From an uncultured Planctomycetota bacterium (GTDB lineage: Bacteria; Planctomycetota; Planctomycetia; Isosphaerales; Isosphaeraceae), in NCBI GenBank assembly GCA_963823665.1, contig CAWGMQ010000008.1, positions 1,440,001 to 1,504,000 of the forward strand: a stretch of 64,000 nt of DNA, read 5' to 3'. The notes below the pieces were generated by a model, which did no database searches, was not told where the DNA came from, and saw nothing but the letters and a program-made list of their open reading frames with translations. Both the position numbers and the translations under genes were made by a program. Of this stretch, positions 25,482-43,367 are shown piece by piece. The first letter of the stretch is position 1. Each line of letters opens with the position of its first letter.

Positions 25482-26062
25482 TCACGTTATCTCGATCAGC
25501 CGACGGCCTGGGACGGTAAGCGGCGACAGGAATCGCAAGAGATACGCCCAGTCCTGGCAGGGGTCTTTGCTGCGATGGACTGCTTCCAGAAGCGACAGAG
25601 GTAGAACGAGGACGTCGACGACTGGCACGACGCGAGCTCGTGCAAGTTTCCAGAAAGGCGTCTTCGGAACGTAGTCGCGCCAGAAGCCCTGCCATCGCGC
25701 GATAGTCGCTCGGTCAACACCAAACAGGGTCGAAAGGTCGCGGACTCGGCGCGGCGTTGGACCTTGCCGCATGGCGCTGACCAAGATCACCACGGCACCA
25801 AGGTAGACCTTTCTGCCGAGAAAACGGACCGATGGCGGCGGCGTCCTCTTTCTGCAGCCATCGCGATCACAGCAGAAGCTGAACCGCGCGCGATACTCCT
25901 CCGGCAGATGATCCGGCCCGCCCCTCGGTACCCGCGGGTAGTTGGCAGATTGCAGGCGACCACCGCACGAGGATCCATTCTGCCGAGTAGAATCGGCCAG
26001 GTCCTTGTCGATCGACAAAAGGAACGACCAGAAACTCCCACTTCAATGCAACTCATGCCCTA
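25482..26062 (-). pseudogene. Degraded zinc-binding/HTH accessory gene typical of DDE-transposase + ExeA-ATPase elements
   Basis: FSFCCDRDGCRKR.PPSVRFLGRKVY and GVDRATIARW HTH; in-frame TGA near the 5' end (HELH*SGSFWSFLLSIDKDL). Confidence 0.6.
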
Positions 26063-26099
26063 TCACGGTCTGCTCCTTGGACTGAGAACAGTGAAAGAG

Positions 26100-26163
26100 G
26101 ACACGCCATGCCAAGGCTCTCACTTGATCACGCCAACTGATAGTGGTTCTCGCCAAAACCTCA
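26100..26163 (-). mobile_element. Putative transposon end (5'-TG... with three TTGGCR repeats)
   Basis: Minus strand reads TGAGGTTTTGGCGAGAACCACTATCAGTTGGCGTGATCAAGTGAGAGCCTTGGCATGG; repeats spaced 20 and 22 nt. Confidence 0.45.
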
Positions 26164-26200
26164 AATAAGTTGATCAGAATCCGCGGATTTCGCATCGATT

Positions 26201-27004
26201 ATGTTGACCACGCTCACGAGAGGGAAGCGATTTACAAAGGCGGATCTATCGCGAATCGCATCGCTCGATGAGCACGCTCGCAAGCCGGGCCTGAAGGAGG
26301 TTCTTGCCAGCTCATTTGAAGGCGCAAGCCTCCTGGAGGCACTCTTCGAGATGGAGGCGTCCTTACGCGCTGGGTTGCGCGACCTCGTGCCAGATTTGAT
26401 CGTCGGCCCACGTGCTACCGCGCTGCTGGCTTTTCTGGGGGAACCCGACGATTTGGCCTGGCTCGTTGAGCGAGCTAGCGCCGTGGAGAACTCGATAACA
26501 GAGCGCGGAGTGGCTGGGATGGTCGTAGGGGCGATCTTGCAGCCGCGATCCGAGAAGGAATGGCTATTTATCGAACGGTGCGCACGAGGTGAATACGGCG
26601 ATGGCGACGTTCCAACAGGCGCGACCCGGACATGCGCGGTCGCAACACTCTGCTTGATCGGGTCAGCCAGAAGCCGTCGGACTCTTGAGCAACTAGACAT
26701 GGCCCATCTAGACCCGGCCCATAAGGAAACCTTCGCCGCGGCGACAGCCGCTGTTCGTTTTTTTCAAGCAGACTCAAAGGTCCTGTCGGATCGCGACCTC
26801 AATCTGCTGGCCAGCCGGTTGACTACCCACGTCAATACACTTCGCGGAATGCCAAACGACGGTCCCTACTTCAACAAGAAACGAGACAAAGCCTACATTT
26901 TCATCGATTCCCTCATTTGGTGCGACGTGAAGGGCAGCGCAACGTTTCGTCAGGTAGGCGGCATCTGGAAGCTAAGCGGACTATTTCTGGAGGCTCCAGA
27001 ATGA
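26201..27004 (+). CDS. Hypothetical protein
   Basis: 267-aa ORF with protein-like composition; no motif recognised. Confidence 0.55.
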   Translation: MLTTLTRGKRFTKADLSRIASLDEHARKPGLKEVLASSFEGASLLEALFEMEASLRAGLRDLVPDLIVGPRATALLAFLGEPDDLAWLVERASAVENSITERGVAGMVVGAILQPRSEKEWLFIERCARGEYGDGDVPTGATRTCAVATLCLIGSARSRRTLEQLDMAHLDPAHKETFAAATAAVRFFQADSKVLSDRDLNLLASRLTTHVNTLRGMPNDGPYFNKKRDKAYIFIDSLIWCDVKGSATFRQVGGIWKLSGLFLEAPE

Positions 27005-27267
27005 GTACCTTCGCCTAACCAGCCATTCGTCGGCCACAGGTCGCGCCCCTGTACCCGTTTTGGGCGGGAAACCGGGGAGTGGAACTCGGTCGCGATTGGC
27101 AGGAGATGTTGTCATGCCAAGAACAAGTACAGTAGCACGTGCTTCGCACGGACGCCGATTTCGAGCCGTTCGAGCACGTCATGGTTGAGACGCATCGGCG
27201 ACAACCACTCCGTCCCTTCGTGCAAGATCACATGCAAAACCATCCACGTCCCTGTTTCCGTCCTATA

Positions 27268-27931
27268 TCCATCTAAAAATACCGCCGTACCCGACGGCAA
27301 TACTCCGCGTATTCCTGCCTGTAGCGCTCCTTCAAATACGCCTCTTCGCGCAAGACCTGACGGTGAAACAGCCATACGCCCGCACCGGCATAAACCAACA
27401 GCATCCAGTTCGAGAAGATCAGGAATTGCCCGATCAAAATCAGCCCGAACACCACATAAATGGGATTGCGGCTCAGCGCAAAGATGCCGCCCGTGATCAG
27501 TTTATCGGGCCCGTCTGTGTCGATGCCGATACGAAAGCTCCGCCCGAATGAGACGAGACTCCACAGCAACAGCAACAGCCCCGCCAGGCAGAAGGCCACC
27601 CCCGCCCACGAGACGACCGCCGAATGGAAAAACTCCTGCGTGCTGACCGTAGCCCACCCGAATGCCGCGGCGAACACAAGATAAAAGTAAAAGAACGCAA
27701 ATGGCGGAATCAAGAAATCGGTATTATCCAGAGCACCGAATTTCATGGCATTGATCCCGCTCCTTTTCAGCAGGAAAGCCCGGGTCAATACCATCCCAAG
27801 CATCAGTAACAGGGTCAGTGCTGCGAAGTATTTCTGCATGAGCTTCCTGAAGCGTCGTCCCCCCCAGCCGACTGGTGGCGCCTCCGTCCCCCGTGCCGTC
27901 GGTGGTTCGCGGAACGTAGAGTGCGTGAAAC
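27268..27931. repeat. Direct repeat copy 1 (~660 bp; pairs with 29993-30651)
   Basis: Aligned by eye at offset 2725; 27379-27722 appears identical to 30104-30447. Confidence 0.95.
27273..27839 (-). CDS. Isoprenylcysteine carboxyl methyltransferase (ICMT/PEMT) family membrane protein, copy 1
   Basis: Multi-TM; LITGGIFALSRNPIY, REEAYL...YAEYCRRVRRY. Confidence 0.88.
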   Translation of the reverse strand: MQKYFAALTLLLMLGMVLTRAFLLKRSGINAMKFGALDNTDFLIPPFAFFYFYLVFAAAFGWATVSTQEFFHSAVVSWAGVAFCLAGLLLLLWSLVSFGRSFRIGIDTDGPDKLITGGIFALSRNPIYVVFGLILIGQFLIFSNWMLLVYAGAGVWLFHRQVLREEAYLKERYRQEYAEYCRRVRRYF

Positions 27932-28394
27932 CCACCGCCACTAAAGCTCGATCCGACGCTTTGGAAACCACGCTCATGCCGGCGCCGCCGTGCGCGGCTG
28001 GAAGCAAGCAATCTAACGCACCGCCCCGCCGCACACAACCGGATGTCGCGCACGGCCGGCACGATGCTGTGGTGCGTGCACCCCTGGACTCGCTCGACTC
28101 GCTCCCGGCCCACAATCTTGTTGAAATCAGCCAAACACCCGCGGATCATGATGCTGCGACCGACGCTCGTCATGCACAAACGCCTTGATCTTCTCGACGC
28201 GATCGAGGATCGTCAGGGTAGCCGTCCTGACACGCTCACTGCCGCTCATGAGTACGCGGCGAAACCGAAACCATCGGGGACCGGCTTCGCCTACCGTCCG
28301 ACGCCTTTCTGGCTTGACGGCCGTCTTCTTGTTCTCCCGTGCACCCGCCGATTCTGCTGGCAAGCCAGGAACTTGGGCGCTAAAGCGAATGCGA

Positions 28395-29264
28395 ATGCCA
28401 AAACGAAAGCGAGACTTGCGGAGAACGGTAATTTGGGTCGACGATGACGCGCTCTATCTGCGTTACCATGCGGATTTGCTCCGCGACTATACAGGTTGGA
28501 ACATACTTGCTACGAACACATGCGAGCATGCGCTGGCGTTGCTCTCTTCTCGGAATCCGCAAGTTTCCGCCGCCATTATCGACGTCATGATCGCGAACGT
28601 CGCCCCGCTCGATCCGTTGAGCGCAAAAGGAGGATTTGCAGCAGGCATCGCCCTCGCACGGCGAATCCGCGAAATCAGTCCAAAGCTCCCCATTCTGGCC
28701 GTGAGCCTGTTGCAAGAGGCTTCCGCCTGGTTCCGCGAGAACTCGAGGATGTCCTTTCTATCCAAGGGCTCATCCGTTGTTGACATCGCCAAAGAATTGA
28801 CCATGTTGTGGGGGAGAAAACGCGCGACGATTCCATTCTCACTCTTCATCGTTCACGGACATGATGATCTGGCAAAGCTTGAGTTGAAGAACTACCTCCA
28901 GAACGTTCTCAAGCTGGGCGAGCCCGTCATCCTGCACGAACAACCCGATATGGGCCGCACCGTTCTGGAGAAATTCGAAGACTATGCTGCCGCTGCGAAC
29001 CTGGTATTCGTGCTCCTGACGCCTGATGACAGCGCTGCCGCCGCGGACAGCGCCGAGAGTAAAAGGCGCGCCCGCCAGAACGTGATCTTCGAGATGGGCT
29101 ATTTTCTCGCGAAGCTGGGCAGGAAAGCCGGTAAGGTCCTACTTCTTTACAAGGGACCCCTTGAGCTTCCGTCGGACATCTCTGGGCTGATCTACATCGA
29201 TATCAGTGCAGGTATTCCAGCGGCTGGGGAATCATTACGTCGTGAGATCTTCTCGTCTTCGTGA
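28395..29264 (+). CDS. Receiver (REC) domain fused to CAP12/Pycsar-type TIR domain
   Basis: REC: WVDDD, IIDVM, AVSL, FLSKG. TIR: FIVHGHD, ILHEQPDMGRTVLEKFE, VLLTPDD, RARQNVIFEMGYF, ELPSDISG. Confidence 0.88.
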   Translation: MPKRKRDLRRTVIWVDDDALYLRYHADLLRDYTGWNILATNTCEHALALLSSRNPQVSAAIIDVMIANVAPLDPLSAKGGFAAGIALARRIREISPKLPILAVSLLQEASAWFRENSRMSFLSKGSSVVDIAKELTMLWGRKRATIPFSLFIVHGHDDLAKLELKNYLQNVLKLGEPVILHEQPDMGRTVLEKFEDYAAAANLVFVLLTPDDSAAAADSAESKRRARQNVIFEMGYFLAKLGRKAGKVLLLYKGPLELPSDISGLIYIDISAGIPAAGESLRREIFSSS

Positions 29265-29285
29265 CAAGATCTTCAGGAGAAGCCG

Positions 29286-29669
29286 ATGAATTCGCCGGGC
29301 GGTCGTCCAGATGAAACGTCTCTTGTCCACTCCGTTGAAGCTGAGGTCCGCGTGGGCAACGAGCAGGGCCTTCACACTCGGCCATGCTACGCCCTCGGCA
29401 TGATTGCCGGCCAGTTTCAATCGGACATATCCATCGTGCTCTCAAATGGGGCCGACCGTGCATACGACGCGAAGTCGATGCTCGATTGGGCTAGCATGGC
29501 CTTGGAATTTGGCTCGTATCTCACCATTCGGGCTGTTGGAAGCGATGCAGCACGAGCGGTCGCCACGATCAAAGAAGCCGTCGAATGCGGCGATCATGAG
29601 GAAATGTACAAGTTATACGATCGACTTGCGAGGGAAAACCTGTGGCTTCCTCTCAAAGAGCGCTGGTGA
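29286..29669 (+). CDS. HPr-family phosphocarrier with C-terminal extension
   Basis: NEQGLHTRP (His15 motif), DAKSML (Ser46 motif), G.DA..A..I; AGGAG upstream; 21 nt after the REC-TIR stop. Confidence 0.85.
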   Translation: MNSPGGRPDETSLVHSVEAEVRVGNEQGLHTRPCYALGMIAGQFQSDISIVLSNGADRAYDAKSMLDWASMALEFGSYLTIRAVGSDAARAVATIKEAVECGDHEEMYKLYDRLARENLWLPLKERW

Positions 29670-29807
29670 CGTGGCTAAGTGCCTTGCCTCCTTTCACAAG
29701 TAATCGGCCGGTTCAGCGCGAAGCTCAGCCTTTATCCTCCACTCCTTGTGTTCAGAACCAGCCCCCCGCACGACGAGCCCGCTTCCGCTACGATTTCACA
29801 ACTCTTC

Positions 29808-29837
29808 CTTCGTTACCTTCGTGACCTTCTGTTCAAA
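29808..29837. repeat. Short 9-nt tandem motif (CTTCGTTAC CTTCGTGAC CTTCTGTTC), REP-like
   Basis: Three 9-nt CTTC-initiated units read directly. Confidence 0.5.
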
Positions 29838-29992
29838 ACCCACAAATTTGGCGTTCACCGCTGCCCCAAGTCCGCATGGTGGAGCGACCACAGCGTGCCC
29901 GACTGGTCGCGTGCCCTATCGCACGCTACCTGCCTTCCTGCCTTCCTAATCAAGACCCCTTACCATCGACGATCTCCAATCAATAATCCATG

Positions 29993-30651
29993 TCCATCTA
30001 AAAATACCGCCGTACCCGACGGCAATACGCCGCGTATTCCTGCCCGTAATGCGCGTTCAAATACGCCTCTTCGCGCAAGACCTGACGGTGAAACAGCCAT
30101 ACCCCCGCACCGGCATAAACCAACAGCATCCAGTTCGAGAAGATCAGGAATTGCCCGATCAAAATCAGCCCGAACACCACATAAATGGGATTGCGGCTCA
30201 GCGCAAAGATGCCGCCCGTGATCAGTTTATCGGGCCCGTCTGTGTCGATGCCGATACGAAAGCTCCGCCCGAATGAGACGAGACTCCACAGCAACAGCAA
30301 CAGCCCCGCCAGGCAGAAGGCCACCCCCGCCCACGAGACGACCGCCGAATGGAAAAACTCCTGCGTGCTGACCGTAGCCCACCCGAATGCCGCGGCGAAC
30401 ACAAGATAAAAGTAAAAGAACGCAAATGGCGGAATCAAGAAATCGGTCTTATCCAGAGCACCGAATTTCATGGCATTGATCCCGCTCCTTTTCAGCAGGA
30501 AAGCCCGGGTCAATACCATCCCAAGCATCAGCAAGATGGTCAGTGCTGCGAAATTCTTCTGCATGAGCGTCCTGAAGCGGCGTCCTCCCCAGCCGAATGC
30601 TGGCGCCTCCGCGTGCCGTCGGTGGTTCGCGGAGCATAGGGTGGGTGAAAC
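29993..30651. repeat. Direct repeat copy 2 (pairs with 27268-27931)
   Basis: See copy 1. Confidence 0.95.
29998..30564 (-). CDS. ICMT/PEMT family membrane protein, copy 2
   Basis: 188 aa, near-identical to 27273-27839. Confidence 0.88.
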   Translation of the reverse strand: MQKNFAALTILLMLGMVLTRAFLLKRSGINAMKFGALDKTDFLIPPFAFFYFYLVFAAAFGWATVSTQEFFHSAVVSWAGVAFCLAGLLLLLWSLVSFGRSFRIGIDTDGPDKLITGGIFALSRNPIYVVFGLILIGQFLIFSNWMLLVYAGAGVWLFHRQVLREEAYLNAHYGQEYAAYCRRVRRYF

Positions 30652-41878: not shown

Positions 41879-42823
41879 ATGGTGAACAAAAAAAAGACAG
41901 GACCGCGCAGAACCGTTGCCAAGCGTAAGAGGCATGCTGCTTTCATCTCCGCTCCTTTTTTCATTGATACCAACGTGCTCGTCCAAGTTCTGAAGGATCG
42001 AGATGTCGAGCCGATTCGCCTCGATGAAATGGAATCGGGCCAGCGCCTCCAGGAATTGGTTAGGAAATCGATCAACCGAGCCGACTTCGTGATCGCCGTT
42101 CTGGGTGATCTGAATCCCAACGTATTGTTCGAGTTGGGCGTCGCAACGGGTTTGGGCAAGCATGTGCTCGTGCTCGGCTCTCCCAAGCACCTCATGCCCG
42201 CTGATCTCGCCGGAATGACTTATCTCAGAGCAGATCCCGCAGACCCACGCGATCGTGAGGCCATCGAATTTGGCTTGGACCAGCTCCTTTCGGCACCAAG
42301 CTCAAAGCGCGCACCGCAGGTCTCGCGCGGTCGCAAGACGCGGGCGATTGGCAAGTCGGCCGACAAACTGATGGAAGAATTGAAGATACTGCGGGAGGAC
42401 AACGGAGGTCGCGAAGCGGATCTCGTCCGTATAATCTCCGAGGCGATCGAAAAAAGTGGTGTATCGACCGTCTCGAAAGAGTCCCCGCTACGGTCGGCAC
42501 GGACGGGGGATCTCGCTGTTTGGTCCGATGACCTGGAGCCTTGGATCGGTAACCCGATGATAATTCAGGTCAAGCAGCGATTGACTAGCAAGAGGGACCT
42601 CGAAAAAGCGATTCAAGACCTTTCCACGGCACTCGATGAAACGCGCTCTCGACGATGCCTTCTGGTCTATCTGGACGCGAAGCCAGCAATTCTCTACGGC
42701 AGCTTGTACGACCCGAGGATCATCGTCTTGTCCGCCGAAGAACTTATTGGCGGGCTGAAGGAGGTTGGACTGGGCGACCTCTTGCGCCGTACGCGGAATG
42801 AATACGCGCAATTGAGGGGCTAG
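41879..42823 (+). CDS. TIR/nucleoside-2-deoxyribosyltransferase-like domain fused to a Mrr-type PD-(D/E)xK nuclease-like domain
   Basis: FISAPF...INRADFVIAVL..LNPNVLFELGVA; C-terminal DLAVWSD...MIIQVK. Confidence 0.7.
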   Translation: MVNKKKTGPRRTVAKRKRHAAFISAPFFIDTNVLVQVLKDRDVEPIRLDEMESGQRLQELVRKSINRADFVIAVLGDLNPNVLFELGVATGLGKHVLVLGSPKHLMPADLAGMTYLRADPADPRDREAIEFGLDQLLSAPSSKRAPQVSRGRKTRAIGKSADKLMEELKILREDNGGREADLVRIISEAIEKSGVSTVSKESPLRSARTGDLAVWSDDLEPWIGNPMIIQVKQRLTSKRDLEKAIQDLSTALDETRSRRCLLVYLDAKPAILYGSLYDPRIIVLSAEELIGGLKEVGLGDLLRRTRNEYAQLRG

Positions 42824-42860
42824 GATACCCGCGTACTCACGCCAAAAAATCAACCGGTAC

Positions 42861-43367
42861 TTGAGAACAGCAGATACCGCCAGCACAAACGACGAAAGAG
42901 GCGAAGTATTCGAAACTCTAGTTTCTTATCTGTTCTCGAAGATACCGGGGGTCCCCCAGATCAGGCGAAATTCGACAAGCGTCTTTCGGTCCGAGGAACT
43001 CGACCTGGTCATTTGGAATGACAAGCATCCAAGGGGCCTGATCTCATTAAGTACGTGGATTCCAGTGGAATGTAAGAGTAGCCACAATCCAATTGGAAGC
43101 CACGAACTTCAGGCTTTTATCTCGAAGGTCGAGCGGAGGGCGTTGGACTTCGGCATCCTCGTCGCGTGGCACGGGATCACGGGAAATGCAGAAGCCTTGA
43201 CCGGCGCGCACGATCACGCTTCTGTCGCGCTAACCAAGGGTATCCGCATCATCGTCATCACCCGACAGGATATCGAAAATCTGGCTTCGACTGACGATTT
43301 GGTGGGGCTTATCCGCACGAGATTGTGTGACTTAATTATTAAGAGAAGCCCGCTGATTCTCGGTTAG
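42861..43367 (+). CDS. Mrr-type (Mrr_cat) restriction endonuclease; true start may be slightly upstream (frame open from 42816)
   Basis: RGEVFE, ELDLVIWND, VECKS, IGSHELQAF, GILVAWHGITG. Confidence 0.8.
   Translation: MRTADTASTNDERGEVFETLVSYLFSKIPGVPQIRRNSTSVFRSEELDLVIWNDKHPRGLISLSTWIPVECKSSHNPIGSHELQAFISKVERRALDFGILVAWHGITGNAEALTGAHDHASVALTKGIRIIVITRQDIENLASTDDLVGLIRTRLCDLIIKRSPLILG

Follow-up and report, generated by a model that had tools for sequence, protein, structure and literature searches.

What input could govern a TIR effector that is fused to a receiver domain, and is encoded beside an HPr in place of a histidine kinase? The question is raised by a two-gene cassette within the window, as we call the whole 64,000-nucleotide stretch of DNA that was analysed, in which gene 1 encodes the receiver-TIR (REC-TIR) protein and gene 2 encodes the HPr (Table 1). 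We put at about 45% the probability that HPr here takes over from a kinase in feeding an NADase that is gated by phosphorylation and serves abortive infection.

Table 1. Features of the cassette and its flanks, with nucleotide positions numbered along the window and residues along the protein
Feature	Position	Strand	Details
Left copy of 0.67-kb direct repeat	27261..27931		ICMT/PEMT-type methyltransferase gene 27273-27839, minus strand
Weak sigma-70-like promoter match	28121..28149	+	upstream of gene 1; 2 found vs 0.8 +/- 0.9 expected
REC-TIR gene (gene 1)	28395..29264	+	289 aa; possible start at 28389
Receiver (REC) of gene 1	about residues 10-140		D16, D17, D63, S104, K124
PF10137 TIR of gene 1	about residues 149-286		contains E233
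Spacer between gene 1 and gene 2	29265..29285	+	21 nt; Shine-Dalgarno-like GGAG before ATG
Divergent HPr paralogue gene (gene 2)	29286..29669	+	127 aa; H30 = His15, S64 = Ser46
Right copy of 0.67-kb direct repeat	29987..30651		methyltransferase gene 29998-30564, minus strand

The cassette and its host genome

By sequence and structural model, gene 1 is shown to encode a receiver, predicted to be phosphorylatable, on a Cap12/PycTIR-type TIR domain with a conserved glutamate. Firstly, the TIR domain matches PF10137 with 110 bits over residues 150-271 (cut-off 24.7). Secondly, although the PF00072 match lies below its cut-off (residues 12-109, 23 bits against 30.2), the receiver assignment was accepted because the profile of the REC-TIR family matches solved receiver domains, and because the AlphaFold2 model (pLDDT 87.4) matches receivers with target-normalised TM-scores of 0.80-0.87. 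Thirdly, the residues of the phosphorylation site (D16/D17, D63, S104 and K124) are intact, as is E233, whose equivalent we take to be the catalytic glutamate of Cap12/PycTIR-type TIR domains; among the matches listed, E233 is kept in 66/66 REC-TIR relatives and D63 in 64/66, the remaining two being gapped. Hence the fusion of an intact receiver to a TIR domain, as claimed in the original prediction, stands. Fourthly, the E233 motif aligns with Cap12 and PycTIR chains (PDB 9lmq, 7un8 and 8jsj), and the structures matched by the model include 9lmq and 9lmr, bearing out the proposed kinship to these TIR domains. The domain layout likewise agrees with the suggestion that the receiver occupies the place of the cyclic-nucleotide sensor of Cap12 and PycTIR. 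Hence phosphorylation is the likely switch, as in DtcC of the Detocs system. The TIR domains of Cap12 and Pycsar turn into NADases upon oligomerisation, according to the available text of PMC13142454, and by analogy that of gene 1 is probably an NADase. The database call for gene 1 begins at an ATG two codons further upstream, giving 291 aa.

Gene 2 exceeds the cut-offs of both PF00381 (60 bits against 23) and TIGR01003 (55.3 bits against 47.9), its H30 and S64 align with His15 and Ser46 of HPr, and an extra C-terminal helix at residues 104-119, common to a small group of tailed HPrs, is confidently modelled; the earlier description of an HPr with His15, Ser46 and a C-terminal tail was thus correct. 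It shares its fold and both motifs with HPr, Crh and NPr, and differs from them in being an extra paralogue outside PTS operons with an added helix. The spacing of the two genes, which share a reading frame, and the GGAG ahead of the second ATG agree with the two-gene operon and 21-nt gap originally described, and a domain search confirmed that the genes next to the pair include no histidine kinase, cyclase, EI/EII or HprK. Promoter and terminator scans at the cassette were near chance. A REC-TIR-HPr fusion or read-through was rejected, as there are 0 fusions among 120 matches listed; it is also disfavoured by REC or TIR being carried by 0/25 HPr matches scanned, and by two related gene pairs (L036 and L167) being out of frame. 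A sequencing artefact was rejected for the pieces covered: short contigs of other public runs match both genes with 0-1 differences, covering each in pieces, with no listed piece spanning both.

The cassette is horizontally acquired cargo, lying outside any recognisable defence island. Its GC3 is 0.61-0.65, against 0.76-0.82 in six other window genes, and the two repeat copies flanking it are identical at 641/665 bases (96%). No empty site without the cassette was seen. Only 4/40 window proteins match PADLOC, each through generic domains only; the best such match of gene 1 is PDC-S35 (161 bits), which resembles its TIR alone, the models leaving the receiver uncovered.

The direct repeats on either side may be traces of an integration by recombination, and could permit excision. 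Multi-copy mobile or repeated DNA lies nearby (window 25500-26216, 27135-27221 and 29774-29875), the second of these resembling what is presumably a REP-associated transposase remnant. At window 41879-43364, 12 kb away, a possible second defence module pairs the gene of a weakly TIR/NDT-like protein with a following gene for an Mrr-type restriction endonuclease domain, and elsewhere in the host genome a second, distant PF10137-like TIR protein has a helical C-terminal part (L002:1393-2319, contig C3).

The host genome (G000; 16.46 Mb, 92% complete) encodes Enzyme I and three other HPrs, to which gene 2 is 28-36% identical; one of the three lies in an apparent hpf-ptsN cluster of the usual kind. 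The frame of this Enzyme I (L279:859-2487) begins at profile position 56, and hence the gene may be broken or mis-assembled; the counterpart in G401 is in two pieces, and both could reflect long-read frameshift errors. HprK had no PF07475 match in this 92% complete genome. A kinase of the cassette type was not found elsewhere in it, the best matches having about 25-30% identity over their full length, and generic kinases gave 38 matches.

The REC-TIR family and its partner genes

REC-TIR proteins are a widespread, patchily distributed family, rare per genome. Three scans, with the genome and metagenome scans contributing their best 80 matches each, gave 239 loci listed, of which 67 encode REC-TIR and 172 a TIR domain without such a receiver. 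Among the 120 REC-TIR matches listed, 112 contain both Pfam domains, and identity to gene 1, self-match aside, is 43-59%. Where 401 genomes were sampled per group, full-length REC-TIR was found in G000 only for its own phylum and in G435 only for the phylum of G435, while REC-TIR occurred in 2 genomes of the G436 phylum, and 4 genomes of the window's own class had a match, one of them TIR-only. The loci added by these samples were L313 and L317, both without HPr, and L315, a repeat of L018. None of the 1143 plasmid records matched covered 80% of the protein, none of 4 phage records matched held a full-length one, no RNA record with it was listed, and in a second viral scan L167 was again the sole full-length REC-TIR.

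Layouts were counted over 66 REC-TIR loci among the matches listed, the frameshifted L050 being left out. A complete trio of kinase, lone receiver and REC-TIR occurs in 30/66, ordered kinase-REC-effector in 17 and effector-kinase-REC in 13; a further 6 loci are partial trios at contig ends, 4 have a kinase only, 7 lie beside other two-component genes, and 12/66 have no recognised partner gene. The trio kinases are sensor-less proteins of 260-300 aa, consisting of HisKA and HATPase only. The two gene orders largely correspond to a clade each (support 98 and 95) in the REC-TIR trees, which are quick trees, one of them leaving out 4/67 rows shorter than 240 aa. Ordinary sensor kinases stand beside REC-TIR in L021, L027, L028 and L031. 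A kinase lies within 2.5 kb in 46/62 listed loci without HPr, mostly together with a lone receiver; this goes in part against the original prediction, which had named a normal pairing with a histidine kinase as refuting it. Hence the family is a Detocs-like two-component module in which variants with HPr make up a minority, and the status of HPr as a minority partner counts against the model in which it is the input. The 12 partnerless loci suggest that REC-TIR may also work with host kinases alone.

Examples of the trio are L008:3747-5843 and L016:4992-7108, with 28 further loci. A TrmB-like SAM-dependent methyltransferase directly follows REC-TIR in 3/66 loci listed (L026:5837-6433, L030:5779-6309 and L103:700-1293), two of which also have an adjacent kinase, and an Amycolatopsis contig carries four PF10137-type TIR genes within 4.5 kb (L084:3321-7803).

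The pairing itself recurs, as co-occurrence of REC-TIR and HPr had been predicted to do: among the matches listed, an HPr directly adjoins REC-TIR in four other loci. A profile of G000 HPrs only found those of L036, L121, L167 and, weakly, L131, and all four exceed the Pfam HPr cut-off; a broader profile including the four found no further pairs in the REC-TIR loci listed and none in 172 control loci (1.37 Mb). Among the matches listed, HPr neighbours therefore occur in 4/67 REC-TIR loci against 0/172 TIR-only loci (Fisher p 0.006), with about 0.04-0.1 expected by chance, and a kinase lies within 2.5 kb in 0/4 HPr loci against the 46/62 others (p 0.007); both p values overstate, as the loci are related and were drawn from the best matches of the scans, and in L036, whose upstream flank is 66 nt, and L121, which is 1.7 kb long in total, a kinase may have escaped notice. 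Counting the window cassette, kinase, HPr and REC-TIR are found together in 0/5 HPr loci. The gene pair of L036 overlaps by ATGA and that of L167 is separated by 5 nt. Although gene 2 is 23-31% identical to its four counterparts, His15 and Ser46 are retained in every cassette HPr. In both genomes that could be checked, G000 and G435, the cassette HPr is an extra paralogue (the second copy in G435) and Enzyme I is encoded. The pairing of gene 1 with HPr is very probably functional. Three independent origins of the pairing are not claimed: the HPr-linked proteins fall at three positions in the best trees, and a single clade was not rejected (AU p 0.25). At L036:1248-2522, a 424-aa gene directly after the HPr has a C-terminus resembling an HNH nuclease, with no Pfam match at 0.001.

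The tail helix of gene 2 occurs in three of 149 other HPr matches (P0126, P0127 and P0130), from which a tail profile was built. P0126 and P0130 keep His15, with Ser46 replaced by Asp in the former and Asn in the latter. P0130, the nearest tailed HPr, shares its source with P0005, a close REC-TIR that groups with gene 1 (support 98), the longest contig being 5873 bases in both, which indirectly suggests a further REC-TIR/tailed-HPr pair; a close relative of gene 1 probably has a tailed HPr too. The emphasis originally placed on the Ser46 motif of gene 2 appears misplaced, as this is probably not the key site, given that no HprK was found in the host and that the two most similar tailed HPrs carry Asp or Asn. 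P0127 is a tandem double HPr, with a tailed first domain that is degenerate and without the His.

Phosphotransfer and its alternatives

The proposed mechanism starts from a two-gene module that would have been acquired horizontally and derived from a Detocs-like two-component defence system. Its TIR would cleave NAD+ on oligomerising, as is established for the TIR family, and the phosphorylation state of Asp63 would control this. Relatives mostly use a sensor-less kinase and a lone receiver, instead of which the window cassette and four others would rely on a dedicated extra HPr. This HPr would be the input, with His30 loaded from PEP by host Enzyme I; once loaded, it would dock on the receiver and most likely hand its phosphate to Asp63, much as an HPt domain would. 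Phosphorylation would either activate the TIR, as in DtcC, or hold it off. The switch would then be flipped when PEP/PTS flux shifts or when phage takeover interferes with HPr, draining NAD+ and aborting the infection.

HPr is favoured as the input replacing the kinase because it occurs only where a kinase is missing, and because His15 is its most consistently kept site; that HPr and kinase never meet in the five loci also helps the idea of HPr as the donor. Receivers accept phosphate from phosphoramidates, making His-to-Asp transfer chemically plausible. Direct transfer from the HPr histidine to the receiver aspartate is nevertheless a tentative proposal, at somewhat under even odds. The original prediction called this reaction not established, and the literature searched did indeed yield no precedent for HPr-to-receiver phosphotransfer. 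Bc1009 of B. cereus is an HPr-like protein whose gene likewise sits with a kinase/receiver system, the RsbKY cluster, and which was once proposed as a phosphocarrier; its cluster differs in having a kinase and no TIR, and when tested it showed no phosphocarrier action for SigB activation, its deletion being without effect (available text of PMC9912610). Somewhat unlikely is the general scheme in which a dedicated HPr paralogue acts as a His-phosphotransfer protein, phosphate passing from PEP through Enzyme I and HPr-His to REC-Asp, so that cellular PEP status would gate an NADase suicide effector without kinase or nucleotide messenger; a single undescribed family of TIR defence modules would then accept either kinase or HPr as its input.

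The complex predicted for REC and HPr scored 0.35, against 0.10 for the best control, in runs that agree in at least 96% of contacts, with a partner pLDDT of at least 81. The mark for a complex was reached by 116/157 solved pairs and 2/215 mismatched pairs, and with a score of 0.60 or under by 18 solved pairs only, plus both mismatches; the prediction of the complex, as originally suggested, is graded as weak support. It fits equally well with the main rival explanation, that HPr is a real partner acting by binding. In that case HPr would be an antitoxin-like clamp or decoy that keeps REC-TIR inactive (or active); the hold would depend on the phosphorylation of HPr itself, or would last until HPr is lost through a phage protein or host shut-off, with Asp63 served by host kinases or acetyl phosphate. 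CcpA and Rsd are examples of partners that HPr regulates through binding, the conserved extra helix could serve as a docking element, dozens of generic kinases are available in the host (the 38 matches), and the same co-occurrence of HPr and REC-TIR would be expected. However, an HPr merely replacing the lone-receiver buffer should be accompanied by a kinase as well as REC-TIR, which is the case in 0/5 loci, and the tailed group retains His15 with a variable Ser46. We regard binding without transfer as unlikely.

The reading of HPr as a kinase-replacing input also includes an anti-phage role for the cassette, which is moderately probable. Among 213 neighbouring proteins in 39 REC-TIR loci, counted without a matched control, defence-type genes lie within 5 kb in 12 loci, of which about 8 are convincing once generic kinase and methyltransferase matches are set aside. 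They comprise BREX (L019), R-M (L167, L112 and L029), Lamassu-like (L130 and L116), DUF262-like NsnA (L008 and L026), helicase (L109 and L110), HerA-like (L096) and type IV REase (L007) genes; capH/capP genes are also found beside some relatives, and L131 adjoins apparent glycine-cleavage genes. The window itself is not a defence island. The same wiring could instead serve stress or dormancy, with PEP/PTS status triggering NAD+ turnover or an NAD-derived signal: no defence system adjoins the cassette, 27/39 loci are without a defence-type neighbour, and ordinary sensor kinases precede several relatives (the four loci named above). However, the trio mirrors Detocs, the distribution is patchy with relatives near BREX, R-M, Lamassu-like and capH/capP genes, and the characterised PF10137 TIRs are immune effectors, as far as the available text of PMC13142454 describes them, making a stress role quite improbable. 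It is likewise improbable that REC-TIR is an orphan trio remnant without its kinase, and HPr a gene without relation to it that happens to lie alongside where mobile genes accumulate, as the 12/66 listed orphans, the duplicated and mobile DNA, the want of a close homologue for gene 2 and the failure of the five cassette HPrs to form one tight family might imply, since four further HPr loci and a probable fifth stand against about 0.1 expected and 0/172 controls listed, the reading frames overlap or nearly do so, and the key residues are all intact.

Relation to known defence systems

The cassette would work like Detocs with a Cap12-type TIR, yet it belongs to none of the Detocs, CBASS and Pycsar systems. 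Detocs consists of a kinase with TPR (DtcA), a buffer receiver (DtcB) and a receiver-effector (DtcC), as set out in the available text of 10.1101/2023.01.24.525353. Like DtcC, gene 1 is a receiver fused to a putative metabolite-destroying effector with its phospho-Asp intact, and most of its relatives use the same logic of kinase, lone receiver and receiver-effector. There are nevertheless differences. Firstly, the effector is a PF10137 TIR, outside the types named for Detocs in the available main text (PNP, REase, TOPRIM, transmembrane and hydrolase, with no TIR; 10.1101/2023.01.24.525353). Secondly, the kinases of the relatives are without the TPR sensor that DtcA has at its N-terminus. Thirdly, the window has neither a kinase (DtcA) nor a lone receiver (DtcB), and HPr is in their place. 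No models named DtcA, DtcB or DtcC were among the PADLOC 2.0 or NCBIfam matches. With Cap12 (TIR-STING) and PycTIR, gene 1 shares the PF10137 family and the Glu motif; unlike them, it lacks both STING and cNMP-binding domains and lies near no cyclase, its sensor being the receiver, and Cap12 models score it at 23-26 bits (cut-off 450).

A 2020 paper reportedly contains a bioinformatic prediction of Detocs-like systems, and the trio may already figure in the bioinformatic work to which the Detocs authors credit their prediction. In the open-access papers and preprint main texts searched, a description of neither the REC-TIR trio nor the REC-TIR and HPr pair was found, in keeping with the original statement that no described system of this architecture was known. 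The terms receiver, histidine kinase and HPr do not occur in the main text of a TIR-system survey from 2025 (10.64898/2025.12.03.692087), and the accessible parts of PMC9503650, PMC11237479, PMC12189002 and PMC12609611 have no bearing on REC-TIR layouts.

Hence a Detocs-like family that combines a TIR effector with a kinase devoid of a sensor is apparently undescribed, as is its sub-type with HPr in the place of the kinase. If HPr donates phosphate to the receiver, this would be a direct junction of the PTS and two-component signalling and, if true, an immune system that senses metabolic flux, where others sense a phage molecule or cyclic nucleotide. The recurrence of REC-TIR with HPr suggests an undescribed wiring of anti-virus defence to central metabolism.
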